From Acidimicrobiia bacterium UBA5794 (GTDB lineage: Bacteria > Actinomycetota > Acidimicrobiia > Spongiisociales > UBA5794): DNA of 64,000 bases. The notes under the pieces are model-generated. The model saw only the letters and a list, made by a program, of their open reading frames with translations. It did no database searches and was not told where the DNA came from. Location: contig DIDS01000032.1 of assembly GCA_002418265.1 (NCBI GenBank), positions 76,396 through 140,395 of the forward strand. The letters run 5' to 3'. Position numbers and translations under genes: made by a program. Of this stretch, positions 6,084 to 50,018 are shown piece by piece. The stretch's first letter is position 1. Every line of letters starts with the position of its first letter.

Positions 6084-6190
6084 GATTCCTCCTGCCGGCG
6101 TTCGTCGTACCCGTGCACAATACCGACCTGGCGTTGCCCGACTTGGCGTTCACCCGACTCCCATGTCGACCCTGTCGGTAATCTCTCCAT

Positions 6191-8952: not shown

Positions 8953-10185
8953 TCATCGTCCGGCGTTGACCACTCGTTCGATCGCTGTGTAGACGTGCTC
9001 GGACATCTTGGCTTCCTCGGGATCGAGAAGGTTGGCCATGACCTTGAGCGTCCATTCCATCAGTGGCTTTGACCGGAGACCGACGGTCGTCAGCGTCTTC
9101 ATCACCGTTGGGTTGCCGATGGCCCTGACAAACACCCGAGCGACCCGGTGGTAGTCGCCATACACATCCTCAAGTTCGACCGCATAATCGCTCAACGAAC
9201 CACCGGCCGCGGCCGAAGCGACATGCCTTGCGGCCATCCGGCCGGTCTCGTAGGCATAGTCGATGCCCTCACCATTGAACGGGTTCACCGCACCCGATGC
9301 GTCACCCACGAGTAGCCAATTGCGGCCGACCTTCGGTCCGACCGACAGACTCATGGGGAGTTTTCCTCCGATTGGCTTTGTGTGGGGTGTCAGGGAATCA
9401 ACCTTCCAGTGATCTGGCAGCGCCTCCGAGTAGGCCTCGAGGATGTGACTCGTGTTGACATCCTTCCAACCCTTGAACGTCGATACGAGTCCTGCACCCA
9501 CATTGATCTCACCGTCACCGAGCGGGAACACCCACCCATAGCCCGGCATCGCACGCCCCTTCTTGTCCCTGATGTCGAGTTGGCTTTCGATGAACGGATC
9601 GTCCGAGTTCGGACTCTCATAGTACGCACGGATGGCAAGCCCATAGGGATAGTCCCGTCGACGGCTCGCCCCCAGACTCCGGCCAAACTGGGAGTTCGAA
9701 CCGTCGGCAATGATCACAAATTCGGGATGAACGACACGACTGCCGTCGTCGGTCATCAGGTTCACGCCGGTGACTGCGTTGTTCTCAAGGATGGGTGTCG
9801 CCGTTGTTCCCTGTTCCACCACGGCGCCCTGTGCCGCGGCGAGCCCAGCCACGGTCCCATCAAGATCGGCTCGACGCATGGTTGCTCCCCAGTTTGGGAA
9901 CACCGAATGCTTGGGCCATGTCAGCTCAATCTCAAGATCGCCTGCATAGGACCGCAGACCGTCGATTCGGTGCAGGTCGAGACCGTCGAAATCGAAGCCC
10001 ATGTCGAGCAGTTGGTGTACGGCCCGCGGTGTGAGACCGTCGCCGCAGGCCTTTTCGCGGGGATAGCGCTTTTTCTCCACGAGGTGAACTTCCAGACCGT
10101 TGCGTGCAAGCCAGTACGCAGCCGATGCACCACCTGGGCCGCCCCCGACGACAAGAACAGATGGTGCAGATGGGAGGGAGGTCAT
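8953..10185 (-). CDS. geranylgeranyl reductase family FAD-dependent oxidoreductase (MenJ-like menaquinone reductase)
   Basis: 410 aa. N-terminal FAD fingerprint VLVVGGGPGGASAAYWLARNG, conserved GDGL, GDASGAVNPFNGEGI block. Confidence 0.85.
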   Translation of the reverse strand: MTSLPSAPSVLVVGGGPGGASAAYWLARNGLEVHLVEKKRYPREKACGDGLTPRAVHQLLDMGFDFDGLDLHRIDGLRSYAGDLEIELTWPKHSVFPNWGATMRRADLDGTVAGLAAAQGAVVEQGTTATPILENNAVTGVNLMTDDGSRVVHPEFVIIADGSNSQFGRSLGASRRRDYPYGLAIRAYYESPNSDDPFIESQLDIRDKKGRAMPGYGWVFPLGDGEINVGAGLVSTFKGWKDVNTSHILEAYSEALPDHWKVDSLTPHTKPIGGKLPMSLSVGPKVGRNWLLVGDASGAVNPFNGEGIDYAYETGRMAARHVASAAAGGSLSDYAVELEDVYGDYHRVARVFVRAIGNPTVMKTLTTVGLRSKPLMEWTLKVMANLLDPEEAKMSEHVYTAIERVVNAGR

Positions 10186-10246: not shown

Positions 10247-11704
10247 CTATCCCGCGGCTTCTACCGTGGCACCGTCGGTGGAGTCGGCGCCGTCGTCGGT
10301 GAACCCGCAGTCGGCTTCGGCCTCGGCGAGGTCTTCGCCACCGAATTGGACACGCTCATACAGCGCAACCTCGGCAATCTGGGTTTCGTCGAGTGTCGAA
10401 CCAAACGCCGGCATCAAGCCAAATCCCCCGACGGGTTTCGCGTTGGCTCCGTACGTCGGATCGGGCCAACCACTCGTACCGAGGGTGATCCACTCGATCT
10501 GATCTGCGCACGAGCCTGCCGGGAACGTTGTGAGGATCCCACCATCGGTAAAGGCGGGTCCTGCACCACCGGATCCGTCAGCGCCATGGCAAGCCTGGCA
10601 CTGTGCATAGACGGCGGCACCATTACCAAAGTAATCGGCAGTCGAAGTGCCATAGGCAGATCCATCGCAGTTGACGGCATTGCCCGTGACCGGATTGACG
10701 AGGAGTTGTCCTGATGTTCCACATTGGGGTCCGTTTGGTGAGATCAGGATGTAGGTCACGGCGAGGAGTGGAATGATCAGGAATGCTGCCGTGAGCCAAG
10801 CGGGATATCGACCGATCTTGGTACTCGGTGCCTCGACATCCTCCTCCACAATGTCTCCACCGATTGGTTCGATGATCTCGATTTCGTGGGATGTCGAGGA
10901 TGCGTCAGTGTCGGTGTCGGCAGGTTCAGAATCAGCCGGCTGGGTTGTCTTGACTTGATCGACGGGAGCGGGTTTCGCGGCAGACTCGGTTGACGCGACC
11001 GTTGCGGGATCGATCCCTGCCCACTCGGCGAGGACCGCCTCGAGGGACTCACCGGTCTTTTTGGCCCGTGCCTCAGCTGAACGCTTTGCGAGTGCTGCAG
11101 GCATCCCTTTGGCTTCGGCGACCTTGTCCAACAGCTCATCCATTCCTATCCCGCCGAGCGCCGCAGCGGCTACCGGTGCTGCGGCTGGTGAGGCTGGAGC
11201 CACAGGCTCGGATTCCGCTGCCGGTTGGTCGTCTGTCGCCGGTGCTCGGTCGTCGGGTTCCGGTGGTCGGGCTTCGGTCGTTGCTGCGGCCTGTTGCTTC
11301 AATTCATCAAGATCAACACCAGCCCATCCCGCGAGGACCTCATCGAGCGGTGTCCCTGAATGCTCGGCCCTGGCCCTTCCCGAACTCAGGATCAGCTTGG
11401 GTGGCATCCTCTTGGCATCGGCCGCCAGCTGGATCAAGTAGTCGGTCGTCACTTCACCCGGCACCCCCGATTCATCGGCAGGTTCATCGGCAGGTTCATC
11501 GGCGGGCGACGGAGAGGCTTCAGCAGGAGTCGAAGGCTCAGGTTCTGGCGGGACATCTTCGGCAGATACCTCAACGCCAGCCCACTCGGCCAGCACGGCC
11601 TCAAGCGTCATGCCCTCCTTCTCGGCCCGAGCCTCGGCAGATCGCTTCACGAGTGATGCCGGCATCCCACGAATCTCGGCGACCTGGTTGAGGAGTTCTT
11701 CCAT
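10247..11704 (-). CDS. membrane-anchored class I cytochrome c with three N-terminal cytoplasmic ~45-aa repeats
   Basis: 485 aa. Three copies of a KRSAEARAxKxGxxLEAVLAEWAG-type repeat. PADEPADEPADE acidic linker (12-nt DNA tandem repeat at 11471..11506). Single TM (AWLTAAFLIIPLLAVTYILI). C-terminal haem-binding CQACH domain. Confidence 0.7.
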   Translation of the reverse strand: MEELLNQVAEIRGMPASLVKRSAEARAEKEGMTLEAVLAEWAGVEVSAEDVPPEPEPSTPAEASPSPADEPADEPADESGVPGEVTTDYLIQLAADAKRMPPKLILSSGRARAEHSGTPLDEVLAGWAGVDLDELKQQAAATTEARPPEPDDRAPATDDQPAAESEPVAPASPAAAPVAAAALGGIGMDELLDKVAEAKGMPAALAKRSAEARAKKTGESLEAVLAEWAGIDPATVASTESAAKPAPVDQVKTTQPADSEPADTDTDASSTSHEIEIIEPIGGDIVEEDVEAPSTKIGRYPAWLTAAFLIIPLLAVTYILISPNGPQCGTSGQLLVNPVTGNAVNCDGSAYGTSTADYFGNGAAVYAQCQACHGADGSGGAGPAFTDGGILTTFPAGSCADQIEWITLGTSGWPDPTYGANAKPVGGFGLMPAFGSTLDETQIAEVALYERVQFGGEDLAEAEADCGFTDDGADSTDGATVEAAG

Positions 11705-11708
11705 CGCT

Positions 11709-13694
11709 CTACCTCAGCGTCTCGATGTAGCTGACCAACGCATCCATGTCGGCGTCAGATAGATATGAATACGACGGCATCGTTGACCAATCTCTCGAAA
11801 TCCGTGGATCGTTCAGATGCGCCTTGAGCCATCCAGAGTTGAAACCTTCCGAGCTTGCAACATGCATGACGTCGGGGCCAACTCTGAGGTGGCCGAGGAG
11901 GGCGGGGTTTTCGTGGACATAGTCTCCTGCGATGCTGACCGGTCCGAGCCCCACGTCTGTACCGACCGGTCGAACCGATTGTGTGTGGCATTCGCCGCAA
12001 CCTTCAGAGATGTAGATGTTTCGACCAGCGAGTTCAGTTGAACCGGCCGGGTATATGCGCGCCTCATCACCGAGGATTGTCGGTTCTGTATTCGCCGGAT
12101 CGATTGCGGGGAATGCCCCTGTGAGCAAGGCTGCTGCGATCCACACCGACGCGGCTCCCCACGCCAACCGCTTCCAGCTCGGCGCAATGACATCACCCTC
12201 AAACTCAAGGTCATAATCGATCGCACCGTCGCCGGTGCCGACCGATGTGGCATTGCCTTTCCCAAGCCGGGAGAAGGCGAACACGATCTGGGCTGCCGCA
12301 AACAACAGGAGGGAAACGGCCGTGATCCAAAGGAACGGCTCCATCGAAACTGTCGTGATTTCCCATGCACTCCCGTTGTTGGCGAAGGATCCGCTCGCCG
12401 GTCCGGAGGCCCACGAAAATCCAGCAACGACACCCCCAGCGATGGTTCCGAATGCCACGCCCGTGAGTCCAGCCACTGACCAGCTGAAGTGAAGTGGGCT
12501 ACCGGATCTGCTGCCGCCTCGGATGATCGAGTGGGTGGCGAACAAAGCAAATGAGCCGATACCGAGGACTACAAGGAGGTCCTTTGCTTGGCTGAAGCTC
12601 GTCGATTGAACAATTGCACTCGTGGAACGGAATGTGAGGAGCACGTTGACCATGGTCACAGCGCCGAGAGCCACGAACGCGACGGTTGCGTACCGCAACG
12701 TCGCGCGGTCGGCAATCCGTGTCACAGATCCATTCAGCATCAAACCCAGATCTGTTGCGATGGCCAGCAGCGGTACGAATGCCGTGATCGCCAATCCAGC
12801 ACCAAGAGTCTCATACCAATCGGGTGCCGCGGAGAACATGAGGCCCGTTGCACTCATGGAACCCCAAACCAACGCAAGTGACCAGAACCCGATTGCCCCG
12901 AGCGGGCGTGGAGCGCTCGGGTCCGTCCCTGTGAGCGACGTCGCCGCAAAGTAGATGAGCCCGACGCTTGTGACGATCACAAACAGACCGGTGATGCTCG
13001 CCGATGCAAAAGCCGTTTGGACCGAGCCACCGATTCCGTCCATGGGAGGGACCAGGCTGACCGCACTCGACAAAGCAAGCCACCAAGCGCCAGCGGTCAG
13101 ATACCAGCCGGTTGCCCCGAGTCTGTTCCTCGCAGCCATCGCTGTTGAAGCAATGGAGATCGCGGCGAGGATGAATCCGACGACCGTGATGGCTCGTGCC
13201 CATAATGGGGCTTCGAAGCCAGCGATTCCGGATTGCAGGCCGACGATGATCCCGATCGCGCCACCGAGCGTTCCAACGACGATGAGAAGCAGTGAAGCCG
13301 TTGAAAGTGCTGAACGCTTGATGTCGGTCTGGGTCGACCGCGAGATGGCAAACAGCGATGCACCGAGAAGGCCAGCAATGATCCAGCCATTCATCAAGAG
13401 GGTGCGGCCCGCCGGTGCGAGTCGTCCCGGCGACGTCGCGGCCGATCCGGAGAAAAGATCGGGAAGCACGCCCTGGAGCGCGGCGATGCCTGCCAGGATG
13501 AGTCCGAGGATCAGGAAAGCGGCTGCGACCATCAGGAACCGTTTCGCGGTGACCGAATCGGTCGTCGTCGACTCTCCCGTTGGAGTGTCTATGGTCGGAG
13601 TTTCCGCGGTCACGCTGGGGGCTTCCTCCTGCATACGGTGTGTTGCCCTGCCGACTTTCGGCCGTCGCAACTCTAGCCGTGCGACGGAGGTCAC
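11709..13694 (-). CDS. polytopic membrane protein fused to a C-terminal CcoO-like monohaem cytochrome c domain
   Basis: 661 aa with >=12 predicted TM helices, followed by a domain with the cbb3 CcoO-like signature YISEGCGECHTQSVRP. The membrane domain has almost no histidines, so it is not a catalytic haem-copper oxidase subunit I. Confidence 0.65.
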   Translation of the reverse strand: MTSVARLELRRPKVGRATHRMQEEAPSVTAETPTIDTPTGESTTTDSVTAKRFLMVAAAFLILGLILAGIAALQGVLPDLFSGSAATSPGRLAPAGRTLLMNGWIIAGLLGASLFAISRSTQTDIKRSALSTASLLLIVVGTLGGAIGIIVGLQSGIAGFEAPLWARAITVVGFILAAISIASTAMAARNRLGATGWYLTAGAWWLALSSAVSLVPPMDGIGGSVQTAFASASITGLFVIVTSVGLIYFAATSLTGTDPSAPRPLGAIGFWSLALVWGSMSATGLMFSAAPDWYETLGAGLAITAFVPLLAIATDLGLMLNGSVTRIADRATLRYATVAFVALGAVTMVNVLLTFRSTSAIVQSTSFSQAKDLLVVLGIGSFALFATHSIIRGGSRSGSPLHFSWSVAGLTGVAFGTIAGGVVAGFSWASGPASGSFANNGSAWEITTVSMEPFLWITAVSLLLFAAAQIVFAFSRLGKGNATSVGTGDGAIDYDLEFEGDVIAPSWKRLAWGAASVWIAAALLTGAFPAIDPANTEPTILGDEARIYPAGSTELAGRNIYISEGCGECHTQSVRPVGTDVGLGPVSIAGDYVHENPALLGHLRVGPDVMHVASSEGFNSGWLKAHLNDPRISRDWSTMPSYSYLSDADMDALVSYIETLR

Positions 13695-13809
13695 ATGTAT
13701 TCCGCCGGCTTGCTGGCCAGCAGGGCATTCGAGGACAGGTAGCCGATGCTGTTCATGATTGGTGAGTGATCGCGGAGCATTACAATGACGCCATCACGAA
13801 GGAACACGG

Positions 13810-14394
13810 TTGAACGAACGCAGACGACTTGTCATCGGATATCTCGCGATCCTCGTCGGGATCGCTACGACGATCCTTGCTTCCGTGGGTGTACACATGT
13901 CGGAAGCCCCCGAGTTCGATGAATTCGGCAAGGCCCTTTATTCGTTCATGCCACGGGGTTGGGTGATCGTGACGTTCTTCCAATCCGTCGCGCTCTGCGG
14001 TGTCCTTCTGGCGATGGCTGGTGCGACGTTCGGGTTCATCTACAAGCGACCGCTCACCTGGGCGCGAGCGATGCTCGGAGCCGTCCTCTTTTCTGCTTTG
14101 ATGATGATTCTGTTCGCGGTCATCCCGAACCAATTCCTCACTCTCGCGCAGTCTACACTTGAGTGGACTCCGCAGAAGGTCTTCGTGACCATTCCGCCGA
14201 TTCTTGTGCTCAACAACACCGTGGAGATTTCGTACGCTGCTCTGAAGGACATGATCTCGGCGGGTTATGTCACAACGATGCTCATCGTCATAGCAATCGT
14301 CATGTACCAGATCCAAGAGCGGGCGAAAAGAACAGACGTGCCGAAGCCAGCCCCGGTTTCGGACTACGGACGACCAATGCGATTGGAGCGCTGA
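13810..14394 (+). CDS. integral membrane protein, first gene of the b6c-type operon
   Basis: 194 aa with 4-5 predicted TM helices. Stop overlaps the start of the next gene (TGATG). No recognised family. Confidence 0.5.
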   Translation: MNERRRLVIGYLAILVGIATTILASVGVHMSEAPEFDEFGKALYSFMPRGWVIVTFFQSVALCGVLLAMAGATFGFIYKRPLTWARAMLGAVLFSALMMILFAVIPNQFLTLAQSTLEWTPQKVFVTIPPILVLNNTVEISYAALKDMISAGYVTTMLIVIAIVMYQIQERAKRTDVPKPAPVSDYGRPMRLER

Positions 14395-14837
14395 TGGCCA
14401 AAGAAGCCTGGCTCGAAACCCCGCCAATCCGCGATGACTATCAACTTGCCATTGTGGATACGGCATACATGACTGCTGCCGTCAAGCCAAAGCAGTTCAT
14501 TCACATCAATGAATCAGAGTGCATCCTCTGTGCCGGTTGTGTGGACATCTGCCCGTGGAAATGCATCCACTTCCTCACTCCCGACATCGTGACGGAAACG
14601 TTCGGTGTTGAACATCCAAGTGCCAAGGAAGAGAACGGAGCATTGTTCCTGATTGACGACACGGAATGCACACGGTGCAAACTATGCATCGATCGCTGCC
14701 CAACGAACGTGATCACGATCGGAAAGTTCGGCGGGTCCGTTGCGGATCAGGTCAGTGAATACGACTCAGCGCCATGGGAATACGACACGGGTGCCAGAGA
14801 CACCAAGAGCGGTGTCGCGTATGGTGTTCGCTGGTAG
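14394..14837 (+). CDS. 2x[4Fe-4S] ferredoxin
   Basis: 147 aa from the internal ATG overlapping the upstream stop. Two CxxCxxCxxxCP clusters (CILCAGCVDICP, CTRCKLCIDRCP). Confidence 0.7.
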   Translation: MAKEAWLETPPIRDDYQLAIVDTAYMTAAVKPKQFIHINESECILCAGCVDICPWKCIHFLTPDIVTETFGVEHPSAKEENGALFLIDDTECTRCKLCIDRCPTNVITIGKFGGSVADQVSEYDSAPWEYDTGARDTKSGVAYGVRW

Positions 14838-14840
14838 GGA

Positions 14841-15638
14841 TTGAGAAGGAGAAAGACGCACGTGGCAGACGGGAACGGGAAAGGCGGAGTACTCACCGCT
14901 GTGAAGGGGATGGGTACCCATCTTCGCAATTCCCAGGTGTGGAACTCGATCTTTCGGCCCGGCTCTCCCGCGCGAGCAGACAGCACCGATTCTCCGAGGA
15001 ACCGCGCCTACGTGGTGATGAACAATGTGCTGTACCACCTTCACCCGGTGAAGGTGAAGCGTCACGGGTTGAAGGTTTCGTATGTGCTGTGTCTCGGCGG
15101 ATTGAGTTTCTTCCTTTTCATCATCCTCACCGTGACCGGCATCTTCTTGATGTTCTACTACCGACCCACCTCGCCAGCGGCATACTTTGATCTCCAAGCT
15201 CTTGCAACCGACGTTGCATTCGGTCAGCTGGTGCGCAACATGCATCGATGGGGTGCTCACCTCATGGTCATCACCGTGTTCCTCCACATGACGCGCGTGT
15301 TCTATCACGGTGCATACAAACCGCCCCGCGAGTTCAACTGGGTGGTCGGCATCATCCTCCTGCTGTTGACACTTCTCCTGTCGTTCACCGGCTACCTCCT
15401 GCCATGGGATCAGCTTGCATTGTGGGCGGTCACTGTCGGCTCGAACATGGGCGCCTATGCACCGGTTTTCGGTGAGCAAGTGTCCTTCATCCTTGTGGGA
15501 GGGGTGCAGATCACTGCCGACACACTGTTGCGTTTTTATGTCCTCCATGTCCTCTTCCTTCCGTTTGTCATCGTCATCTTCATGGCCGTCCACTTCTGGC
15601 GGGTCCGTAAAGATGGCGGCATATCAGGACCCCTGTAA
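14841..15638 (+). CDS. petB: cytochrome b6-type (short, 4-helix) cytochrome b
   Basis: 265 aa. Colinear with b6 over blocks [31 protein letters not shown] and [15 protein letters not shown], ending in the b6-type ISGPL C-terminus. All four haem-ligating His are in place. ~50-aa N-terminal extension (alternative start at 14910). Confidence 0.85.
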
Positions 15639-15647
15639 GGAGATCGT

Positions 15648-16547
15648 GTGGCACAGCTACCAGAGAATCTCCTGAGGCGTGCAGCCGAGGCGAGAGCAAA
15701 AGCCGAAGGCATCCCAGTCGAGGAGGCGTTGGCTGAGATGAAAGGTGAAGCACCACCGGCTGGCGCCGACGCCGCCGCTCCTTCGGCCGGGGCACCGGCA
15801 CCCGTTGCCGCCTCTGGCGGGCCGGTTCGGGATCTCGACGCAGAATCGTCGAAGTTCGGTGTGCCACGACCGCTCCTCGACCGTGGCATGCGCGCACGAG
15901 CCCGAAAGGACGGAACCGCGGTACCGGCAATGGCGGGCGCGGCTGTAGCCGCTAGCCCTGCCGCCGGCAAAGCCGCTCCTGCTGCCCCTGCTGCGCCAGG
16001 TGGTCCACCTCCCGCTGCAGGTCCTCCTCCAGGGGTGCGTACGCAGCGCCTCCTGACCGTCGTCAAAGCAGGAGCCATCCAAGGAACGACGAAAGAGCCC
16101 CAGGACAAGGTCAACGTGTGGCCACATCTGCTCGCCATCGAGTTTGTCGCACTCTTGGCAATGCTTGCGCTACTCACATTGATGTCTGCATTCATCGACG
16201 CACCACTGCTTGAATTCGCAAACTTCAACCAGCAGCCGAACCCGTCGAAGGCACCGTGGTACTTCCTCGGCCTCCAGGAGTTGCTCGCATACTTCGACCC
16301 TCAGGTCGCAGGCGTCCTGCTACCCACGTTCGGCATGATTGCGTTGATGTTCATTCCCTACGTGGACCGGAACCCATCCGTCCGCCCGTCCGATCGCAAG
16401 CTCGCGTTCTCGATCTTCACGGTCTTTTTCATGGCTGCCTCGATCCTCACCATTTTCGGATCATTCTTCCGAGGACCGGGGTTCAACTTTGTGTTCCCAT
16501 GGCGCGATGGCATATTCTTTGACGACTTAAAGACGTTACTCGAATGA
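15648..16547 (+). CDS. petD: cytochrome b6f subunit IV-like (C-terminal half of split cytochrome b) with repeat-bearing N-terminal extension
   Basis: 299 aa, GTG start preceded by AAGGAG. C-terminal 150 aa carry the PEWY-box equivalent APWYFLGLQELL and three TM helices. N-terminal ~150 aa contain two copies of the AEARAKxxG repeat also seen in the 10247..11704 protein. Confidence 0.8.
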   Translation: MAQLPENLLRRAAEARAKAEGIPVEEALAEMKGEAPPAGADAAAPSAGAPAPVAASGGPVRDLDAESSKFGVPRPLLDRGMRARARKDGTAVPAMAGAAVAASPAAGKAAPAAPAAPGGPPPAAGPPPGVRTQRLLTVVKAGAIQGTTKEPQDKVNVWPHLLAIEFVALLAMLALLTLMSAFIDAPLLEFANFNQQPNPSKAPWYFLGLQELLAYFDPQVAGVLLPTFGMIALMFIPYVDRNPSVRPSDRKLAFSIFTVFFMAASILTIFGSFFRGPGFNFVFPWRDGIFFDDLKTLLE

Positions 16548-17392
16548 CCACGACCACCTTCATCCTCATCCTGATTGGCGCTGGCGTTGTTGCCCTGGCC
16601 GGCATCATTGTTGTCGCTGCGCGCCGATCCGAATCGGAGGGTGCCGCAACCCCAGCCGAGCTGGATCGGAAGGCGGTCAAGGCTGATCGTGCTCGTCGGG
16701 CGAGACTTGCCGAGGCCCAGGCCGAAGGCGGAAACGGTGGTGGCGTTGCGACGATGGTCGCCGCTCCTGCCGAGTTCGACGATGATCCTCCCAAACAGGA
16801 GATCTCCTCCGAGGAATACGGCGTCACCCGTCGCAAGTTCTTCAATCGTGCGCTTACCGCTGTGTTCGGTCTCTTCATGTTGCAGTTTACGCTCGCGAGC
16901 CTTGCGTTCATGTGGCCAAAGCTCAAAGGTGGCTTCGGAACACCCATCAATGCTGGCAAGGTCTCCGATCTCAAGGCTGAGGTCCTCGTTGCTGGTTCTC
17001 TCGTGCCCAAGTTCGTGCCACCAGCCCAGGCGTGGATCGTTCCATTCGAGATGTCGAAACTCAAAGGCTCCTCGTTTGAATCGGTTCCCTTTGTGGTCGC
17101 TGGGGGTGAATCGGACGGTGTCGGTCTCATGGCGCTGTGGCAACGCTGCGTCCACCTTGGGTGTCGGGTTCCTTCATGTGAGTCATCCCAGGGTTTCGAA
17201 TGTCCGTGTCATGGATCCAAATACAACGGTCACGGAGAGTATTCACAGGGACCTGCCCCACGAAATCTCGACCGCTTTGGCGTGTCGGTCAACGACGCTG
17301 GCGAACTGATCGTCGAGACCGGCAACATCGTCCAAACCTCTCGGTCCAAGCACTTCACGATCCTGTATCCCCAAGGGCCCTTCTGTGTTTGA
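16544..17392 (+). CDS. petC: Rieske [2Fe-2S] protein
   Basis: 282 aa. Box I CVHLGC and box II CPCHGS. N-terminal TM plus an internal twin-arginine-like RRKFFNRAL. ATGA start overlaps the upstream stop. Confidence 0.85.
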   Translation: MTTTTFILILIGAGVVALAGIIVVAARRSESEGAATPAELDRKAVKADRARRARLAEAQAEGGNGGGVATMVAAPAEFDDDPPKQEISSEEYGVTRRKFFNRALTAVFGLFMLQFTLASLAFMWPKLKGGFGTPINAGKVSDLKAEVLVAGSLVPKFVPPAQAWIVPFEMSKLKGSSFESVPFVVAGGESDGVGLMALWQRCVHLGCRVPSCESSQGFECPCHGSKYNGHGEYSQGPAPRNLDRFGVSVNDAGELIVETGNIVQTSRSKHFTILYPQGPFCV

Positions 17393-18977
17393 TGGCGCGG
17401 CGGTTCACACACTGAGTTTCGTTTTCGCGACCGAAAGCTCCGAACCGGTCTCAACCGGTGGCGTTGGCATGGGTGCGCTCGTCCTCACATTGGCAGTCAT
17501 CCTCCTGCTCAGTTGGATGGCTTATCTGTATGTCAACACTCGGAGAAAGCGGGCAGCAGCGAATGAGGCTGCGCCGCCCAACCTCGCTCAACCGATATCG
17601 GACGACGAGTTCGAGAACGTGAAGCTGACCCGTGTGCTTCGTGCAGCGCTGTTCGGATCCATCCTCCTTGCGATCGCCATGCCGTGGTATGCCCTCAATG
17701 AGCCTGACCGCCAAGCTGAGGCTGCCGAGATGATTGTTGATGCTGACATCGAGGCCGGGGCACATTGGTACAGCATCAACGGGTTCCAGTGTGTCAACTG
17801 CCATGGACCGTCTGCCGGGGGTGGTGCAGCACCGTTCACGGAGCCTCGTTCTGGTGTCGCCACCAGCTGGAAGGTTCCATCACTCAACGACATCTTTTTT
17901 CGATACACCGATGATGAGGTCAAGCATTGGATCGTCTTTGGACGTGACGGTACACCCATGCCGGCAAACGGTTTGGAGGGTGGCGGTGCCATGACCGTTC
18001 AGGAAGTCGATCAGGTCATGGCATACCTCAAGTCGATCCAGATCACTCAACAGGAAGCCTTCGCACAGGCAGAATCCGCCACCAGCCTCGCATTGGCGGC
18101 AATAGAGGGTGGTGCGACCGCTACCCGGGATCTGATCGCCGCCCAAGAGGCGAAGATCGCGTTGGTCAAAGATGCTGGACGCCAACTTGACATCATCGGT
18201 GGCTTCCCTGATGACATCAAGGATCTGTTCCAAGCTGATGGTTCATGCACTGTCGAATCGGCGGCACTCGTGACGGCTACGTGTGCCAATCCCGCTCCTG
18301 ACGCGGACAGGGATGGGCTGGCAGATGTCGTTGAGGGACCCCTGACGGCGATGGCAAACGCCACGCTTCAAGCCGTGGTGGGAGCCCCGGCGACTGCTCA
18401 GGCGATTTACTCGTTCACGTTTGACCCAACGAATGCCTTCACCAACGAAGATCCTGTTGCGAAGGCGCCTCTGCCCGACCTTGAAGCGGCGAAGGAATTC
18501 CTCAATGCCGTCGAAACAGAGGTGCTACTGCTCGGAGTCACGTTCGACCGTGAAGACGCATTTCTTGCCGATCTGGTTTCGGGACTCGACTTCCTGAACG
18601 CGGCCGCCGAGACCCAACTGTGGGACGTCGACTATGACGCGAAGGCAGTCGAGATGGACGTCACCTTGGAAGAAGCAAAGCAGGCAGCCGGGTTGTTCAA
18701 CGCCTACTGTGCCCGCTGCCACACCGGTGGATACTCTGCAGGTGCGGCATTCGAACAGGGAGCCGGGTCGGGAGCGTGGGGTCCTTCCCTTCTCGACAAC
18801 CGCGCAGTCACCCAGTTTCCCGAGATCCAAGATCACATCAATTTCATCATCGATGGATCTGAGGACGCGAAGAAGTACGGAATCAATGGGCTCGGATCCG
18901 GTCGTATGCCTGCGTTCGGTGAAATCCTGTCGGTGACACAGATTGAGCTCATCGCCAAGTACGAAAGGACATTGTGA
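17385..18977 (+). CDS. large membrane-anchored dihaem cytochrome c
   Basis: 530 aa. N-terminal TM. Two CXXCH sites (CVNCHG at ~aa 130, CARCHTGG at ~aa 445) separated by a ~300-aa insertion. GTG start overlaps the Rieske stop; the true start may be the downstream MGALV (17469). Confidence 0.7.
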   Translation: MFDGAAVHTLSFVFATESSEPVSTGGVGMGALVLTLAVILLLSWMAYLYVNTRRKRAAANEAAPPNLAQPISDDEFENVKLTRVLRAALFGSILLAIAMPWYALNEPDRQAEAAEMIVDADIEAGAHWYSINGFQCVNCHGPSAGGGAAPFTEPRSGVATSWKVPSLNDIFFRYTDDEVKHWIVFGRDGTPMPANGLEGGGAMTVQEVDQVMAYLKSIQITQQEAFAQAESATSLALAAIEGGATATRDLIAAQEAKIALVKDAGRQLDIIGGFPDDIKDLFQADGSCTVESAALVTATCANPAPDADRDGLADVVEGPLTAMANATLQAVVGAPATAQAIYSFTFDPTNAFTNEDPVAKAPLPDLEAAKEFLNAVETEVLLLGVTFDREDAFLADLVSGLDFLNAAAETQLWDVDYDAKAVEMDVTLEEAKQAAGLFNAYCARCHTGGYSAGAAFEQGAGSGAWGPSLLDNRAVTQFPEIQDHINFIIDGSEDAKKYGINGLGSGRMPAFGEILSVTQIELIAKYERTL

Positions 18978-19492
18978 TGCCGAACCCCAAGCGCGACTTC
19001 ATCGATGTCATTCGCAGGGACGAGTCAGGGCTTTCGAAGCTCGAAATGCTCGGTCTGATTGCCTTCATCCTGTCCCTGCTCGCCATGGTCCCGTTCATCA
19101 GAGACTTCACGATCAACCTCGTGGGAACGGTCTTCGATCAATTTGACGAAGAGACGGGGCAGCACAGCGACCTGTCCATTGCAGCACGCGGGATCGTGAT
19201 CGTGGCTGGCGCCGTCCTCGTTTTCATCGGCTCCGGTTGGCTGATTCTTTGGACCGACGTGGGAAAACGCCTTGCCTTCTTGCTCACCGGAGCCGCCACG
19301 TTTGGATGGCTGACCGTCAACGGAATTTTGTTCACCGTGTACGCACCGCGAGGTATCCGACCCGCGAACCTCGAGGGACTCAGTGCCCTCCAGATGCGTC
19401 TCCCGGCCATAGCGATGTCCCTTGGTGCTTTCGTTCTCTTCCTGATGTTCTCCGTAGCCCTCACCCGCTACGAGGCAGATGTGGAGGAATGA
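18974..19492 (+). CDS. small integral membrane protein, last gene of the b6c-type operon
   Basis: 172 aa, four predicted TM helices. Start overlaps the upstream stop (GTGATG). Confidence 0.55.
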   Translation: MMPNPKRDFIDVIRRDESGLSKLEMLGLIAFILSLLAMVPFIRDFTINLVGTVFDQFDEETGQHSDLSIAARGIVIVAGAVLVFIGSGWLILWTDVGKRLAFLLTGAATFGWLTVNGILFTVYAPRGIRPANLEGLSALQMRLPAIAMSLGAFVLFLMFSVALTRYEADVEE

Positions 19493-19524
19493 ATCGCCAA
19501 AGGCGATTCACTCCGGCTTTCAGC

Positions 19525-19559
19525 TGAATCGTCCGTGAGCCGATGGCTCACGGACGATT
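19525..19559. terminator. perfect 16-bp-stem hairpin between convergent operons (probable bidirectional terminator)
   Basis: GAATCGTCCGTGAGCC-gat-GGCTCACGGACGATTC, preceded by a second short palindrome GAATCGCC-aa-GGCGATTC at 19491..19508. It lies directly after the stop of the + strand operon and overlaps the last codons of rex. Confidence 0.5.
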
Positions 19560-20168
19560 CAAGTGATACGCCAAGATTCCGAGTTCGGTTGACAGGTCGA
19601 CCCTCCGCACGGAGACGTCCTCGTGGGTCTTCAGTGTTGTTGGTGCCAGGTTGAGGATGGATCTGACGCCAGCCTCGATGAGTCGGTCCGCGGCGCTCTG
19701 GGCAGCGGAAGGGGGAGTGGCGATGATTCCGATCTTGATCGCCTTGGCCTTGACGATCTGGGGGAGACGGTGCAGAGACTCGACGATGAGTCCATCCACC
19801 CGCGTGCCGATCTTGTCCTCGTCCACATCCACGATCGCTTCAATTTCGAAACCCCAGTTCTCGAAGCCACCATAATTCGCGAGCGCAGTTCCGAGATTCC
19901 CGGCACCAATGATCACAACGGGATGGTCGTTGAGCATTCCGAGTGCCTTGCGGATTTGGGCACGCAGCTCGCCGATGTCATAGCCGACTCCCCGGGTGCC
20001 ATGACTCCCGAGGTAGGACAGGTCTTTGCGAACCTGTGCCGCGTTGACACCAGCGACTTCAGCCAACTCCTCGGAGGAGCACCCTGACGCGGTCTCAGCC
20101 ATGTCGGACAAACAGCGGAGGTATCGCGGCAGCCTCGCAACGGTCGCTGATGGGATTCGTGTCGTCAT
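19548..20168 (-). CDS. rex: redox-sensing transcriptional repressor Rex
   Basis: 207 aa from MTTRIPSATVARLPRYLRCL, the winged-helix N-terminus typical of Rex. NAD(H)-binding Rossmann VVIIGAGNLG. The longer ORF to 20252 is probably not used. Confidence 0.8.
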   Translation of the reverse strand: MTTRIPSATVARLPRYLRCLSDMAETASGCSSEELAEVAGVNAAQVRKDLSYLGSHGTRGVGYDIGELRAQIRKALGMLNDHPVVIIGAGNLGTALANYGGFENWGFEIEAIVDVDEDKIGTRVDGLIVESLHRLPQIVKAKAIKIGIIATPPSAAQSAADRLIEAGVRSILNLAPTTLKTHEDVSVRRVDLSTELGILAYHLNRP

Positions 20169-20257
20169 CTGTTTGAGGTTAGGACGGCTTGTTGCTGACG
20201 CTGAATCCAGTTCCGATGATTTCTGGTCGAGCCGGAGCACCAGTATCCTCACACTTC

Positions 20258-20680
20258 ATGGAGTTCGCCGATTACCTACCCATCGCACTGATGTCAATCC
20301 TCGGTATTGGTTTTGCCGGAGTGTCGATATTTCTGTCGAAGAAACTGGCCCCTCACAACCCGACTCCAGAGAAGCTTGCTCCGTACGAATGTGGGATCGT
20401 TCCGCTACAGGATCCTGTCATCCGTTTCCCGGTCAAGTTCTATCTCGTGGCCATGCTGTTTGTGATCTTCGATGTGGAGATCGTCTTCCTGTTCCTGTGG
20501 GCGGTCCGGATGGATCAGTTCGGATGGGTCGGCATTGGGGCTGTCGTCCTGTTCATGTTGATGCTCATCGAAACGCTTGGGTACGTCTGGAAACGTGGTG
20601 CACTCGACTGGAACGTTGCCAGACGCGCAAGAAACCGTCGTGTCGTAGCACCTGTCGCCACGCTCGATGAGGCTGCGTGA
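20258..20680 (+). CDS. nuoA: NADH-quinone oxidoreductase subunit A
   Basis: 140 aa from [11 protein letters not shown]. Three TM helices with conserved PYECG and FDVE blocks. Confidence 0.85.
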
Positions 20681-21165
20681 TGGCCTCTCAATCAACCGCA
20701 CCGGGAATTCTCATGACCACCCTTGAGAAGGGTGTCAACTGGGCACGGACCCAGTCCATGTGGCCCGCGTCGTTCGGACTTGCGTGTTGCGCAATCGAGA
20801 TGATGGGGACCGGTGCGGCCCACAACGACCTGGCACGATTCGGAATGGAGATCTTCCGGGCCTCACCCCGCCAAGCAGATCTCATGATCGTGGCAGGCCG
20901 TGTATCGCAGAAGATGGCTCCCGTTCTCCGACAGGTGTATGACCAGATGGTTGAACCGAAGTGGGTCCTCTCCATGGGTGCGTGCGCCTCGACGGGAGGC
21001 ATGTTCAACAACTATGCGCTCGTACAGGGGGTCGATCAGGTCGTGCCTGTGGACATGTACGTCCCCGGATGCCCGCCGGGCCCCCAGTCCCTCATGCACG
21101 GGATCCTGACCCTCCAGCAAATGATCATGGACGGCAAGATTCAGAATTCCACAGGGGTGCTGTGA
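20677..21165 (+). CDS. nuoB: NADH-quinone oxidoreductase subunit B
   Basis: CCAIEMM, GxCASTGG and PGCPP motifs for the N2 cluster. Start overlaps nuoA stop. Confidence 0.9.
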
Positions 21166-21166
21166 A

Positions 21167-21742
21167 ATGACCGATGCCACATCGACGCCCGCTGATGCCG
21201 CGGGAAACCAAGACGCTGGCACCGAGCAAGAACCGATGTCACCAACCATTGAGAATGCTCTGATCGCAACTGCGTTTGCCGAGGTGGTTGGTGTTGACGA
21301 CGTAACCGAACACAAGTACGCCTCATCCGACACCACATACCATTTTGCCCACGTCGACCCAAGGTCGTGGCTTGACGCCATCGCGGGCGCCAAGGATGCC
21401 GGGTTCGACTTCTTCATTGACCTGTATGCGGTGGATCACTTTTCCCAGGCTCCCCGTTTCGAGGTTGGGATCAATCTTGTGTCAATGGAGATGAACCAGC
21501 GACTCATCATTTCGACAAGAGTCCCCTATGACGAGCCAACGCTCCCATCAGCGACCGGTCTGTTCGTTGGTGCCAACTTCTATGAGCGTGAGGCGTATGA
21601 CCTTTTTGGGATCGGATTCGTCGGACACCCTGACCTCACACGCATTCTCCTCCCAGACGATTGGGAGGGACATCCGCTTCTCAAGGACTATGGAGCAACA
21701 CCGATCCCTGTCGAGTTCAAGGCCGGGAGCGCTGATCTATGA
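21167..21742 (+). CDS. nuoC: NADH-quinone oxidoreductase subunit C
   Basis: 191 aa. NuoC/30 kDa subunit blocks ([19 protein letters not shown]). Confidence 0.85.
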
Positions 21743-23181
21743 GCGACACCACCAACATCCCGGACAATGAGATGATCGACGCAGCCGCGGTCGCAACCGA
21801 TGACAGTGCCGGGACGCACGATCGGGAGTCGGGTGAAACCCGACGTCGTGACATCCATACGATCTGGGTCAGTGGGACGGAGGAGCGTTACCCCTTCGCC
21901 GCTGAAACCGGTGAGGGCGCCCAAGAAATGCTGCCAGCGGACGTCGACCCCACCGCCCGTCTCCAGGGTGGAATCGTGGTCGACGACGACTATGTGTCCC
22001 AAGGCGAGGATGACCCAAGCGAACGCCAGATCATCAACATGGGTCCCCAGCATCCCTCGACGCACGGCGTGCTCCGGCTTCAACTGGAGCTCGAGGGCGA
22101 AACCATCAAGCGCGTGAAACCGATCATTGGGTACCTCCATACCGGTATGGAAAAGACCGCCGAGACACTCAACTATGCCCAAGGCTCAACGAATGTCACC
22201 CGAATGGACTATCTCGCCCCGTTCAACAATGAGCTCACGTTCTCTCTGACGGTCGAGCAGCTCCTCGGTATCGACGTCCCCGAACGTGCCCAAGCCATCC
22301 GCGTTCTCATGACCGAGCTGGACCGGGTGGCGAGCCACCTCATTTGGGCCGCCACCCAGGGCATGGACATCGGGGCGGTCTCGATGATGATCTACGGCTG
22401 GCGCGAGCGTGAGATCTGTCTCGATTTCTTTGAGACGGTGACTGGGCTTCGGATGAATCACAATTACATCCGTCCCGGGGGTGTCGCAGCCGATCTTCCT
22501 GATGGCTGGGAGGACGGCGTGACCAACCTCATCGCAAAGGTTTCCGTCGGCGTGGACGAATATGAGGAACTGCTCAACGACACTTCGATCTTCCTCGACC
22601 GCACCTTGGGTGTCGGTGTGATCACCCCTGAAGAATGCAAGCAGTACGGCATCACGGGACCCATTGCACGCGCATCGGGTGTCAACTGGGATCTCCGCAA
22701 GTCGGCCCCTTACAGCGGTATCGACAAGTATGAGTTCCACGTACCGCTCGGCCGCTACGGAGATGTACACGACCGTTGGCTCGTTCGTATGGCCGAGATC
22801 CGCGAGTCGCTCAAGATCGTCAAACAGGTGATGGACACGATTCCCGAGGGCGACTACCGCCATGAGGATCGCAAGATCACACCACCACCGCGCAAACGCA
22901 TCGATGAGTCAATGGAGGCGCTCATTCATCACTTCAAGCTCTTCACCGAGGGGATACTTGTTCCACCGGGCACCGCATATCAATCCGTTGAGGGTCCCCG
23001 CGGTGAGCTTGGATGTCTGATGGTCTCCAAAGGCGGTGCACGGCCATGGAGGATGCACTGGCGGGCCCCGTCGTTTGCAGCCGTGCAGGCCCTGCCCGTC
23101 ATGCTGACAGACTCTCTTGTGGCAGACGTCATCGCCTCACTGGCCTCAAGCGATCCGGTACTGGGAGATGTGGATCGATGA
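21739..23181 (+). CDS. nuoD: NADH-quinone oxidoreductase subunit D (with ~100-aa N-terminal extension)
   Basis: 480 aa. [15 protein letters not shown] and the C-terminal [18 protein letters not shown] NuoD signature. Confidence 0.9.
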
Positions 23182-23807
23182 CCAGTCCCATTGCAAACTG
23201 GTCGCCGGAGAATCAAGAGCGAGCCAACAAGATCCTCGCCACCTATCCCGAGAAGCGTTCAGCAATCATGCCGCTGCTGTACCTTGCCAGCCTTGAGCAC
23301 AACCATGCATCCAATGAGGCGATGTGTCAGGTGGCCGAACTCATCGGCATCACACCCTCACAGGTGCGGTCAGTGTCGACGTTCTACACGATGTTCAAAC
23401 AAGAACCGGTCGGCAAATATCTTGTGTCGGTATGCACATCGATCTCCTGCCACCTCCTCGGTGGGAACGAGGTGTTTGATTCCGTTTCCGATGCTGCCGG
23501 TGTCGGGCACAACCAAACCACCGAAGATGGACAGATATCCGTTGAACACGTCGAGTGCATCGGTGCATGTGGTGGGGCGCCAGCCGTGCAGGTCAACTAC
23601 GAACTGATCGAAGGCGTCACTCCTGACAAGGCACGGGCTCTCGTTGAATGGCTCACCCAGACAACGCCAGCGGTTGTCCTCGCCGATGAGATGCAACAGC
23701 TCTTCGGAGGTCAACGATCCTTTGACTGGGGGCCCGCAGAACATGCCGGGGCCATTGCGCCCGTCCCTGCATTCGGTCCCTACGGATCGGCTGGGGGCGA
23801 CCAATGA
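23178..23807 (+). CDS. nuoE: NADH-quinone oxidoreductase subunit E
   Basis: 209 aa from the ATGA overlap. [2Fe-2S] ligands in CTSISCHLLGG ... CIGACGGAPA. Confidence 0.85.
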   Translation: MTSPIANWSPENQERANKILATYPEKRSAIMPLLYLASLEHNHASNEAMCQVAELIGITPSQVRSVSTFYTMFKQEPVGKYLVSVCTSISCHLLGGNEVFDSVSDAAGVGHNQTTEDGQISVEHVECIGACGGAPAVQVNYELIEGVTPDKARALVEWLTQTTPAVVLADEMQQLFGGQRSFDWGPAEHAGAIAPVPAFGPYGSAGGDQ

Positions 23808-25093
23808 CGACCCAGATCCTCACCGCACGGATGGAAGCTCACCCTTCCGACAGCCACACCATCGAGCGCTATCTCGATACGGGGGGATACGCGACGCTCA
23901 AGAAAACCGTGGCCTCGTCGAAGCGAGAAGACATCGTTGAGCAGGTCAAGGCATCGAACATCCGTGGCCGTGGCGGCGCTGGTTTTCCCATGGGTATGAA
24001 ATGGGGCTTCTTGGCTGCCAGCGACCCGAAATATCTCGTTGTCAATGCTGACGAATCAGAGCCGGGAACCTTCAAGGACCGTCAGCTTCTGGAACGCGAT
24101 CCACACCAGCTCATCGAGGGAATAGCGATTGCCAGCTTCGCACTCGGCGTCAACCGAGCATTTGTTTATATCCGTGGTGAGTATTCGAAACCAGCAAGGC
24201 GACTCCAGCGTGCCGTCGAGGAAGCCCATGAAGCGGGCTACCTGGGAGAGAACATTGCCGGGTCCGGATTCTCGCTCGATGTTACGGTTCACCTCGGCGC
24301 CGGCGCCTACATCTGTGGTGAAGAGACGGCCCTCCTCAACAGTATCGAGGGACGCCGAGGAGAACCGCGGCTCAAGCCACCCTTCCCAGCCGTTGAGGGT
24401 TTGTACGCGAGGCCGACGATCGTCAACAACGTCGAGTCGTTGAGCAATGTCCCATGGATCGTGGCCAACGGTGGCGAGGCATACGCAGCAATCGGACCGG
24501 AACGATCCGCAGGGACACGCATGTTCTCGCTGTCGGGCCATGTCAAGAAGCCGGGAAACTACGAGATCGTGATGGGTATGTCATGGCGCGATCTGATATA
24601 CGGAATCGGTGGGGGCATCAGGGATGACAATGAACTCAAGACCTGGATTCCCGGTGGTGCATCCTCCCCATGGCTGATCCCTGAACATCTCGACACGGCC
24701 ATCACGATCGATGGCGTTGTCGAGTTTGGGACCATGCTTGGTTCGGGCGCCGTTGTGGTGATGGACGAAACGACCGATGTCGTTGCAGCAGCTCACAGCA
24801 TCGTTCGCTTCTTCGCTCACGAATCGTGCGGACAATGCACCCCGTGTCGTGAGGGCACCAAATGGCTTCAGGACATCCTCGAACGGATCATGGCCGGGAA
24901 CGGGCGACCCGAGGACGTCGACCTCCTCCTCGACGTGTCGGACAACATCTCTCCAGGACTCGTGTGGCCGCCCGCAATGACGACCATCTGTCCCCTCGGT
25001 CCCTCGGCGACTGCACCGATCATCTCAATCACGAAGTATTTCCTCGATGAGGTCAATGCCGCCATCGAAGGAAGGCAGGCAGCCGTTGTCTGA
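23804..25093 (+). CDS. nuoF: NADH-quinone oxidoreductase subunit F
   Basis: 429 aa. FMN/NADH site GRGGAGFPMGMKW. N3 cluster ESCGQCTPCREGT. Confidence 0.9.
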   Translation: MTTQILTARMEAHPSDSHTIERYLDTGGYATLKKTVASSKREDIVEQVKASNIRGRGGAGFPMGMKWGFLAASDPKYLVVNADESEPGTFKDRQLLERDPHQLIEGIAIASFALGVNRAFVYIRGEYSKPARRLQRAVEEAHEAGYLGENIAGSGFSLDVTVHLGAGAYICGEETALLNSIEGRRGEPRLKPPFPAVEGLYARPTIVNNVESLSNVPWIVANGGEAYAAIGPERSAGTRMFSLSGHVKKPGNYEIVMGMSWRDLIYGIGGGIRDDNELKTWIPGGASSPWLIPEHLDTAITIDGVVEFGTMLGSGAVVVMDETTDVVAAAHSIVRFFAHESCGQCTPCREGTKWLQDILERIMAGNGRPEDVDLLLDVSDNISPGLVWPPAMTTICPLGPSATAPIISITKYFLDEVNAAIEGRQAAVV

Positions 25094-25112
25094 TACAAAG
25101 AACGCCCCAGAG

Positions 25113-28660: not shown

Positions 28661-28670
28661 GGAGGCAGAA

Positions 28671-30158: not shown

Positions 30159-30160
30159 CC

Positions 30161-46323: not shown

Positions 46324-46325
46324 GC

Positions 46326-48410: not shown

Positions 48411-48423
48411 GAGGAGCAACAAG

Positions 48424-50016: not shown

Positions 50017-50018
50017 CA

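Follow-up and report, generated by a model that had tools for sequence, protein, structure and literature searches.

The two divergent operons described here lie in a 64-kb stretch of DNA (hereafter the window, whose numbering is used for all positions) from the uncultured Acidimicrobiia bacterium UBA5794, and they pair a Rieske/cytochrome b complex of the cytochrome b6 type with a module that derives from a cbb3-type oxidase but is almost certainly not an oxidase itself. Nine genes occupy positions 10247–19492 (Table 1), with coordinates as in an initial annotation of the sequence, whose account of gene content and divergent layout agrees with the open reading frames (ORFs) and with Pfam and NCBIfam domain matches. 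On the plus strand, seven tightly packed genes encode, in order, a protein with four transmembrane (TM) helices, a ferredoxin, cytochrome b6, subunit IV, a Rieske protein, a dihaem cytochrome c, and another 4-TM protein; on the minus strand, two divergent genes encode a CcoN-like/CcoO fusion protein and then an anchored monohaem cytochrome c. Because the spacing between genes is short on both strands (−1, +3 to +24, +9, −4, −8, and −4 nt on the plus strand; 4 nt between the fusion and cytochrome c genes on the minus strand), the arrangement is consistent with two operons.

Homologues of the fusion protein are mostly 641 or 634 aa long, and a conserved TAGAGT box lies downstream of the upstream GTG at 13694; we therefore place the start of the fusion gene at the ATG at 13634, which revises the protein from the 661 aa first annotated to 641 aa and, consequently, the divergent promoter region from 115 bp (13695..13809) to 175 bp (13635–13809). 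In an alignment of 13 orthologous intergenic regions, TAGAGT and the −10-like TACAAT are the sole conserved elements that stand out between the flanking starts, and both may function as promoter boxes. Among the plus-strand genes, cytochrome b6 is called by JGI as a 258-aa protein starting at 14862, the reading frame being open from 14841.

Table 1. Features of the divergent locus and its immediate surroundings, in window numbering.
Feature	Position	Strand	Remarks
MenJ-like geranylgeranyl-reductase-family flavoprotein	8953..10185	-	NCBIfam
Membrane-anchored monohaem cytochrome c, CcoP-like haem domain, 485 aa	10247..11704	-	
Repeat region, anchored cytochrome c	10985-11704	-	residues 4-48, 90-134, 191-235 (three copies)
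Ligand-less CcoN homologue (12 TM) fused to CcoO monohaem domain (one TM), 641 aa	11709..13634	-	
Divergent intergenic region	13635..13809		175 bp; two conserved -10-like boxes
-10-like box TAGAGT	13670-13675	-	conserved across orthologous intergenic regions
-10-like box TACAAT	13781-13786	+	faces plus-strand operon
4-TM protein, no matching family, first gene of plus-strand operon	13810..14394	+	
Soluble cytoplasmic 2x[4Fe-4S] ferredoxin	14394..14837	+	Fer4 families
Cytochrome b6, short, four-helix	14862..15638	+	PF00033, E = 1.5e-48
Subunit IV, 3 TM helices, APWY	15648..16547	+	PF00032
Repeat region, subunit IV	15648-16100	+	matches at residues 7-33, 74-95 (1-2 copies)
Rieske [2Fe-2S] protein	16544..17392	+	PF00355, PetC-type NCBIfam matches
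Membrane-anchored dihaem cytochrome c	17385..18977	+	PF13442/PF00034
4-TM protein, no matching family, last gene of plus-strand operon	18974..19492	+	
Rex redox-sensing repressor	19548..20252	-	NF003992, 295 bits (cutoff 226)
nuoA-N, 14-subunit complex I	20189..35090	+	ORFs, conserved nuoA/nuoB synteny

The two halves of the fusion protein have fared very differently relative to their counterparts in cbb3 oxidases. Its C-terminal 140 residues form a CcoO domain, as first annotated: they match PF02433 (FixO; E = 9e-24, 84.6 bits versus a cutoff of 29.6), align to 3mk7_B at E = 6e-17, and combine, as CcoO subunits do, a CxxCH motif and an axial methionine behind one TM anchor (CGECH at residue 546 and the methionine of MPSY, with M619-P620 invariant); the TIGR00781 score of 79.5 is below its cutoff of 200.65. 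The remainder, which the initial annotation described only as a polytopic membrane protein, is a CcoN homologue devoid of metal ligands. In a profile comparison, its N-terminal 470 residues match CcoN (3mk7_A) over their full length (E = 2.4e-8), and the AlphaFold2 (AF2) model predicts a CcoN fold with 12 TM helices (predicted TM-score 0.83), whose best Foldseek matches are CcoN chains (3mk7, 9g6b, and 8smr; E = 3e-13, TM-score 0.83–0.85). The Pseudomonas stutzeri ligands H60, H207, H257, H258, H345, and H347 are replaced by G, A, T, G, K, and L, respectively, and the cross-linked Tyr251 is replaced by W. None of these positions is conserved across 20 family members. The loss is evident again in a joint alignment, in which canonical CcoNs from the same list of hits serve as a positive control and carry the expected H H Y H H H H. 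The membrane domain of the fusion contains two histidines only, one of them conserved, and the single histidine common to the membrane domains of the 20 members aligns with the HFW of real CcoN, which is not a ligand.

Because all haem and copper ligands are absent, it is very unlikely that the fusion protein reduces O2; it appears to have lost the capacity to bind haem b, haem b3, and CuB and to have retained its c haem. The ligand-less domain is nonetheless under purifying selection: relative to the closest locus (dS 0.67), dN/dS is 0.106 for this domain and 0.131 for the CcoO domain, and values of about 0.1 rule out a decaying pseudogene. Invariant residues within the membrane domain include R77, R147, E275, D295, R336, and H382, and many tryptophans are conserved. 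JGI and NCBI name the fusion cbb3 oxidase subunit II or I/II, and relatives match PF00115 and PF02433; given the missing ligands, such names mislead.

Ligand-less CcoN homologues are not restricted to the Acidimicrobiia. An exhaustive profile search yielded 125 cluster representatives (E ≤ 1e-30), which were aligned to P. stutzeri CcoN as the reference. Canonical CcoNs among them have all seven residues, whereas all seven are missing from about 40 fused and about 25 unfused representatives; some of the ligand-less representatives contain only one or two histidines in total, and a rough neighbor-joining tree sets them apart from the canonical CcoN cluster. The unfused forms are followed by CcoO genes, and, in four further family members on contigs of 2 to 3 kb, this N–O pairing is the only context visible. 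In Verrucomicrobiota, the genes ActB-C-D-E-F of Alternative Complex III (ACIII) precede an unfused ligand-less CcoN, CcoO, and a cytochrome c, an arrangement retained in loci that have diverged to 32 to 33% identity. These verrucomicrobial loci, considered as canonical CcoN controls, proved ligand-less themselves (verified against 9g6b_A), and they represent an independent association of the family with an unrelated quinol:cytochrome c oxidoreductase. Our survey of the literature, in which coverage of subscription journals was limited so that a prior description is possible, returned no account of a ligand-less CcoN or of the divergon.

Additional features were observed at individual loci of this wider family, which we refer to by number. 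In loci L036–L046, from Terrimicrobiaceae and related Verrucomicrobiota (e.g., positions 2359–13669 of L044), the ACIII operon, ligand-less CcoN, CcoO, and cytochrome c are followed by a CoxB whose CuA motif (CSQLCGTGHYNM) is intact, and no CoxA gene lies downstream, making this an oxidase-like gene set with no catalytic subunit in cis. System II cytochrome c maturation genes lie immediately upstream of the ligand-less CcoN in L051 (7021–9916; ResA, ResB, and CcsA) and in L050 (2–1643; ResB-CcsA), and CcmE is adjacent in L056. Within L050, the ligand-less CcoN precedes COX2-COX1.

The plus-strand operon encodes a Rieske/cytochrome b complex with a b6-type, split cytochrome b (b6c), and the profile checks proposed with the initial annotation (PF00033, PF00032, and PF00355 here, and PF02433 for the minus-strand CcoO domain) all return matches. 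The best PDB match of its cytochrome b6 is the cyanobacterial (Mastigocladus laminosus) b6, at 168 bits, versus 78 bits for mycobacterial QcrB. Aligned to 1vf5_A, it shows the four haem histidines, the H-14-H spacing of helix D, and a GISGPL C terminus (the latter in 23 b6 orthologues), and its CLGG motif aligns to the haem-cn Cys35 of M. laminosus b6. This cysteine, present in 27/27 orthologues from the window and related loci, is predicted to attach haem ci/cn. Of the NCBIfam models for cytochrome b, ExtP (NF040969) is passed, at 304.4 bits versus a cutoff of 290; PRK03735 (220 versus 325) and actinobacterial QcrB (112 versus 500) remain below their cutoffs, as do ExtQ (58.8 versus 150) and, for the Rieske protein and cytochrome c of the window, QcrA (26.5 versus 275) and QcrC (22.3 versus 200). 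The reading of the split between b6 and subunit IV as genuine also stood: b6 ends after helix D (stop at 15638), subunit IV is a separate gene from 15648, and a frameshift origin is rejected by the 9-nt gap, by the 150-residue N-terminal extension that subunit IV possesses, and by conservation of the split in every locus whose contig spans both genes. That extension is cytoplasmic, with the TM helices confined to residues 161–270.

The signature at the Qo site is APWY (APWYFLG in the window), which is found in 23/23 subunit IV orthologues and assigns the complex, by this motif, to the APWY clade of Rieske/cytochrome b complexes that Kao and Hunte described across several phyla in 2014 (PMC4122944). 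Their compilation contains five split cytochromes b from deep-branching Actinobacteria, including one from the Acidimicrobidae (Ilumatobacter coccineum YM16-304); no member of the clade had been characterized at that time, and reverse operation was suggested (PMC4122944). Split cytochromes b with a haem-ci cysteine outside the “green clade” were reported by Baymann et al. in 2012 (PMC3509893). The initial annotation regarded a split b6 as unusual for Actinobacteria; it was right that the protein is of the b6 type and not QcrB, but the class had been catalogued by 2014 (PMC4122944), and its sequence signatures make the b6c half a further representative of this class, which is known but unstudied. 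NCBI names the Acidimicrobiia b6 “selenite/tellurite reduction operon b-type cytochrome ExtP” (P0111 and P0119). The Geobacter Ext cluster comprises extHIJKLMNOPQS, including a porin, a rhodanese, and the multihaem ExtKL, ExtM, ExtN, and ExtS (PMC5877670), and Pfam and NCBIfam scans of the window detected none of these Ext operon genes (porin, rhodanese, or multihaem proteins) at the locus. Because the ExtP cutoff is barely passed and the Ext operon context is absent, the name is a misleading over-transfer.

The remaining subunits of the plus-strand operon are similarly conserved. The Rieske box CPCHGSK occurs in 23/23 orthologues, box II of the window protein reading CPCHGSKY; Ser and Tyr at these positions predict a high midpoint potential (PMC3509893), such that the potential of the window Rieske protein is probably high. 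The dihaem cytochrome c has TM helices at residues 32–50 and 81–99 and haem motifs at 136 (CVNCH) and 442 (CARCH), the two haem domains being separated by about 300 inserted residues. A pair of CxxCxxCxxxCP motifs occurs in 26 ORFs from the window and related loci, and the ferredoxin lacks a TM helix. The stop codon of the first 4-TM gene overlaps the ferredoxin ATG, and this 4-TM protein (helices at 8–26, 52–70, 87–105, and 148–166), which occurs in every Acidimicrobiia locus whose contig extends that far (27/31), might serve as the ferredoxin anchor. The last 4-TM protein is also conserved in Acidimicrobiia loci; neither 4-TM protein has a Pfam or NCBIfam match even at E = 10, and comparison of the two revealed no relationship that would make them paralogues. 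We found no description in the literature of a conserved ferredoxin gene with an upstream 4-TM partner in such an operon.

A cytoplasmic domain is shared by one subunit from each operon. The anchored cytochrome c of the minus-strand operon consists of a cytoplasmic N-terminal region of about 300 residues, one TM helix (304–322), and a haem domain (PF13442/PF00034 at residues 361–449) with a single CQACH at residue 369. Its N-terminal region contains copies of a repeat of about 45 residues (consensus MDELLxxVAExxGMPxSLxxRSAxARAxKEGxTVEAVLAEWAG), each of which is modeled by AF2 as a three-helix bundle (pLDDT of about 95), with disordered linkers between copies. Every orthologue of the anchored cytochrome c has three to four copies in its cytoplasmic region, and most of the subunit IV orthologues recovered (19/24 loci) have one to three at the N terminus; within the window and the loci, the repeat is confined to these two proteins, with orthologues in L001–L031 and L053. 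It has no Pfam match, a Foldseek search of the AF2 model against the PDB returned nothing below E = 0.03, and the repeat region, used as a query, recovered no homologues other than fragmentary orthologues. The display of the same domain on the cytoplasmic side of subunit IV and the anchored cytochrome c suggests a physical link between the operons, most readily accounted for by a partner common to both subunits or by their tethering to each other.

The divergon recurs, as far as each contig extends, in 31/31 loci recovered from Acidimicrobiia, the nearest relatives being uncultured Acidimicrobiia represented by metagenome-assembled genomes (MAGs), and such recurrence is more than chance. The order that is kept comprises the MenJ-like gene, cytochrome c, and fusion on one side; 4-TM protein, ferredoxin, b6, subunit IV, Rieske, dihaem cytochrome c, and 4-TM protein on the other; and then rex and nuoAB. 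These MAG loci keep their synteny even where the fusion protein has diverged to 46% identity, and the distant fused members L051 and L053 retain the same partner genes, with ResA-ResB-CcsA inserted directly before the fusion gene in L051. The initial annotation had entertained the possibility that the divergon is a common, already annotated qcr/cta arrangement of close relatives: it is indeed common in relatives, but the annotations there are automatic and misleading, and no known qcr/cta arrangement corresponds to it. Its proposal of one coupled, uncharacterized respiratory module is backed by the conserved synteny and by the repeat domain that spans both operons.

The genes flanking the divergon are also conserved. 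The MenJ-like flavoprotein (GG-red-SF, 227 bits, above its cutoff of 159; MenJ, 290 bits where 700 are required) adjoins the cytochrome c gene in 24/31 Acidimicrobiia loci, and an FAD-binding protein of similar size (407/418 aa) is at its position in L051 and L053; this neighbor points to menaquinone, perhaps partly saturated, as the likely quinone. On the other side, rex retains its position in loci; it is convergent with the plus-strand operon, with two hairpins common to both at 19493–19556, and divergent from nuoA-N, of which the nuoEFG subunits are also seen in the homologous locus L051. Coregulation by Rex is unsupported because the operator TTGTGAAN4TTCACAA has no match anywhere in the window at up to three mismatches.

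Each half of the divergon resembles several known systems without coinciding with any. The minus-strand module shares with cbb3 oxidases (CcoNOP, including the CcoN–CcoO fusions of NF011053) the 12-helix fold, the CcoO CxxCH and MPSY methionine, the GRLxP, PDW, and HFW motifs, and the gene order N–O followed by a CcoP-like cytochrome c; it differs in lacking the histidines for haem b, haem b3, and CuB and the cross-linked Tyr, and in having a monohaem third subunit with a long cytoplasmic repeat region. Like other members of the APWY clade, among them Geobacter ExtOPQ, the plus-strand module has a split cytochrome b with a CxGG cysteine and APWY, and passes the ExtP cutoff. Unlike Geobacter Ext, it has no porin-cytochrome conduit or multihaem ExtM/N/S partners, possessing instead a ferredoxin, a dihaem class I cytochrome c, two 4-TM proteins, and a pseudo-cbb3 operon. 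The four-helix b6 with H-14-H and GISGPL, the three-helix subunit IV, the haem-ci cysteine, and the PetC-like Rieske protein are held in common with b6f and with the b6c complexes of Bacillus and Heliobacterium, which, however, have PEWY or PDWY where the window has APWY; the window lacks a cytochrome f or a subunit IV-cytochrome c fusion, and adds a dedicated ferredoxin and the extension of subunit IV.

Other likenesses concern the assembly as a whole. The actinobacterial QcrCAB-CtaCDEF (bcc-aa3) system also has an anchored dihaem c outlet and probably shares menaquinone, and it exemplifies the Gram-positive logic by which tethered c haems replace a soluble carrier; its cytochrome b, however, is not split or b6-like, its Rieske protein and cytochrome c models score the window proteins far below their cutoffs, and its partner is an aa3 oxidase and not a dead oxidase of the C family. 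The bc1-cbb3 (P. aeruginosa, 8smr; Rhodobacter capsulatus, 6xkw) and ACIII-aa3 supercomplexes likewise join a complex III equivalent to a partner with the haem-copper-oxidase fold through tethered c haems, and are plausible ancestors or analogues of the arrangement proposed below, but theirs is an active oxidase, whereas the partner in the window has lost its active site and has a putative association with the complex, deduced from gene order and shared repeats. Anammox Rieske/cytochrome b complexes resemble that of the window in the signature of a high-potential Rieske protein alongside a low-potential quinone, a split b, and a ci cysteine; the extra subunit in the window is simply a dicluster ferredoxin that has neither a flavin nor an NAD(P) domain, and the c partners there carry class I haems as opposed to multihaem, HAO-like ones.

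At about even probability, we propose that the operons constitute one functional unit, a menaquinol:cytochrome c module with a c-haem relay built on a dead cbb3 scaffold. A b6-type complex composed of b6, subunit IV, Rieske protein, anchored dihaem c, the two 4-TM subunits, and a cytoplasmic ferredoxin subunit would oxidize menaquinol, and electrons from the Rieske protein would pass to four membrane-tethered c haems: two in the dihaem subunit and two in a catalytically dead cbb3 descendant that comprises the CcoN scaffold-CcoO fusion and the CcoP-like anchored cytochrome c. Pseudo-CcoN would serve only to dock and position the haems, the cytoplasmic repeats that subunit IV and the anchored cytochrome c have in common would hold the two parts together or bind a common cytoplasmic partner, and the relay would deliver its electrons to a true terminal oxidase whose genes lie elsewhere. 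Oxidases of the caa3 type have been assigned to Acidimicrobiia MAGs in a metagenome survey (PMC8357290). We favor this proposal because of the combination of ligand loss, CcoN fold, retained c haem, selection, synteny, and shared repeats.

Several points weigh against it. The supercomplex and electron transfer between its parts, as well as the direction of electron flow and the final acceptor, are inferred, and no terminal oxidase is encoded within the 64-kb window. An oxidase might be within reach of the dihaem cytochrome c by itself, as it is for QcrC in other Actinobacteria, in which case an extra relay would seem redundant. A relay explains neither the strong internal conservation of the 12-helix scaffold nor the role of the ferredoxin. 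Furthermore, in the Terrimicrobiaceae loci, a CuA-type CoxB follows the ACIII/ligand-less module with no CoxA nearby, which hints at a role beyond that of a relay.

The ferredoxin is central to another explanation that we hold to be unlikely but that is compatible with the relay: a bifurcating, or reverse-running, b6c-ferredoxin complex for which pseudo-cbb3 would still form the high-potential outlet. Menaquinol oxidized at the APWY Qo site would deliver one electron to the Rieske/c-haem chain and the other, via bL, bH, and haem ci, to the 2x[4Fe-4S] subunit, so that ferredoxin or NAD(P)+ would be reduced in place of the usual recycling of quinone. Translational coupling of the ferredoxin gene and its conservation in every locus, the invariable haem-ci cysteine, the CPCHGSKY signature combined with a MenJ-like gene implying a low-potential quinone, and the link drawn by Kao and Hunte between APWY and reverse operation (PMC4122944) all fit this scheme, as does the presence in the window of an 11-subunit complex I operon without nuoEFG, a possible user of ferredoxin; a precedent exists in anammox Rieske/cytochrome b complexes, which have cytoplasmic NAD(P) oxidoreductase subunits and a high-potential Rieske protein (PMC12954380). 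The Rieske potential and quinone type are, however, deduced from sequence, electrons could just as well flow from the ferredoxin to haem ci, as has been proposed for cyclic flow through b6f (PMC5600118), and the APWY clade offered no characterized complex as of 2014 (PMC4122944). Doubtful, too, is a broader synthesis in which ligand-less CcoN/CcoO proteins make up a common but overlooked class of pseudo-oxidases, acting as c-haem docking hubs for unrelated quinol:cytochrome c oxidoreductases (b6c in Acidimicrobiia and ACIII in Verrucomicrobiota), and a bifurcating b6c-ferredoxin complex feeds the 11-subunit, NuoEFG-less complex I. That the ligand-less CcoN–CcoO is instead an enzyme or transporter with a noncanonical cofactor, such as a quinone site that supplies the CcoO haem or a proton pathway that has been kept, would account for the conserved charged and aromatic residues within the membrane, for a dN/dS as low as that of the haem domain, and for a large and old family with fused and unfused forms; we rate it as distinctly improbable, however, in view of the lack of any conserved set of redox-metal ligands, the near absence of histidines from some members, and the redundancy of a second activity next to complexes that already perform quinol:cytochrome c transfer.

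If the operons were independent, pseudo-cbb3 could act in the biogenesis or stabilization of c-type cytochromes or of an aa3 oxidase, a role suggested by the maturation genes that precede the fusion in L051, by the sequence ResB-CcsA, ligand-less CcoN, COX2-COX1 in L050, and by the adjacent CcmE in L056. But the divergon contains no maturation genes either in the window or in the 31 Acidimicrobiia loci, and the repeat shared between subunit IV and cytochrome c, together with adjacency to two unrelated types of complex III, favors a partnership, leaving only a slim chance for biogenesis. As for a genuine, high-affinity cbb3-type cytochrome c oxidase, database names, the PF00115 and PF02433 matches in relatives, and the CcoN fold speak for it, but the six histidines and the tyrosine are absent from every member examined while being recovered in canonical sequences of the same alignment, and NCBIfam oxidase scores are far below their cutoffs (NF011053, 110.6 versus 1080; TIGR00780, 31.7 versus 583). 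Ligand loss refutes an oxygen-reducing cbb3 oxidase at the sequence level, and we give this alternative next to no credence.

The pseudo-cbb3 partner, the breadth of its family, and its misannotation constitute the notable result. A haem-copper oxidase that has lost its entire active site, yet in two phyla has been kept by strong selection beside equivalents of complex III, would be a clear instance of an enzyme converted into a scaffold; a familiar parallel is provided by the mitochondrial bc1 complex, with its core proteins derived from peptidases. The metagenome survey cited above also assigns cbb3 oxidases to Acidimicrobiia MAGs (PMC8357290), and if those calls rest on the ligand-less family, microaerobic respiration with high affinity for oxygen would have been falsely attributed to these organisms. 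The b6c half would provide a nonphotosynthetic, aerobic setting in which to study haem ci, a negative-side ferredoxin, and the APWY Qo site.

Other features of the window lie farther from the divergon. Upstream, at 5250–7039 and 8656–8910, are genes for a PPK2 polyphosphate kinase, an S-adenosylmethionine (SAM) hydrolase, and a small glutaredoxin-like ORF; the SAM hydrolase and glutaredoxin-like genes also adjoin the divergon in the distant locus L053, and the conserved neighborhood therefore reaches beyond respiratory genes. Between these two genes in the window lies a plus-strand ORF of 464 aa (7111–8505) that has no NCBIfam match, ends in an HNH-like Cys/His motif (CRMPATQCDLDHRIEW...CRHDHVIRH), and may be a mobile insertion. 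Downstream, about 6 kb beyond the full 14-gene nuo operon, is the second operon of the complex I type (41306–51530, plus strand), with 11 genes: nuoA, B, C, D, H, I, J, K, L, M, and N (D, H, L, M, and N identified by Pfam, the other six by ORF size and position). Here nuoD (42817–44001) runs into nuoH (43998–45008), leaving no nuoEFG. The AT skew is strongly negative (to −0.28) at 30000–35000 and 44000–52000; these intervals correspond to the hydrophobic, antiporter-like subunit genes of both nuo operons, and the skew is probably an effect of codon composition.

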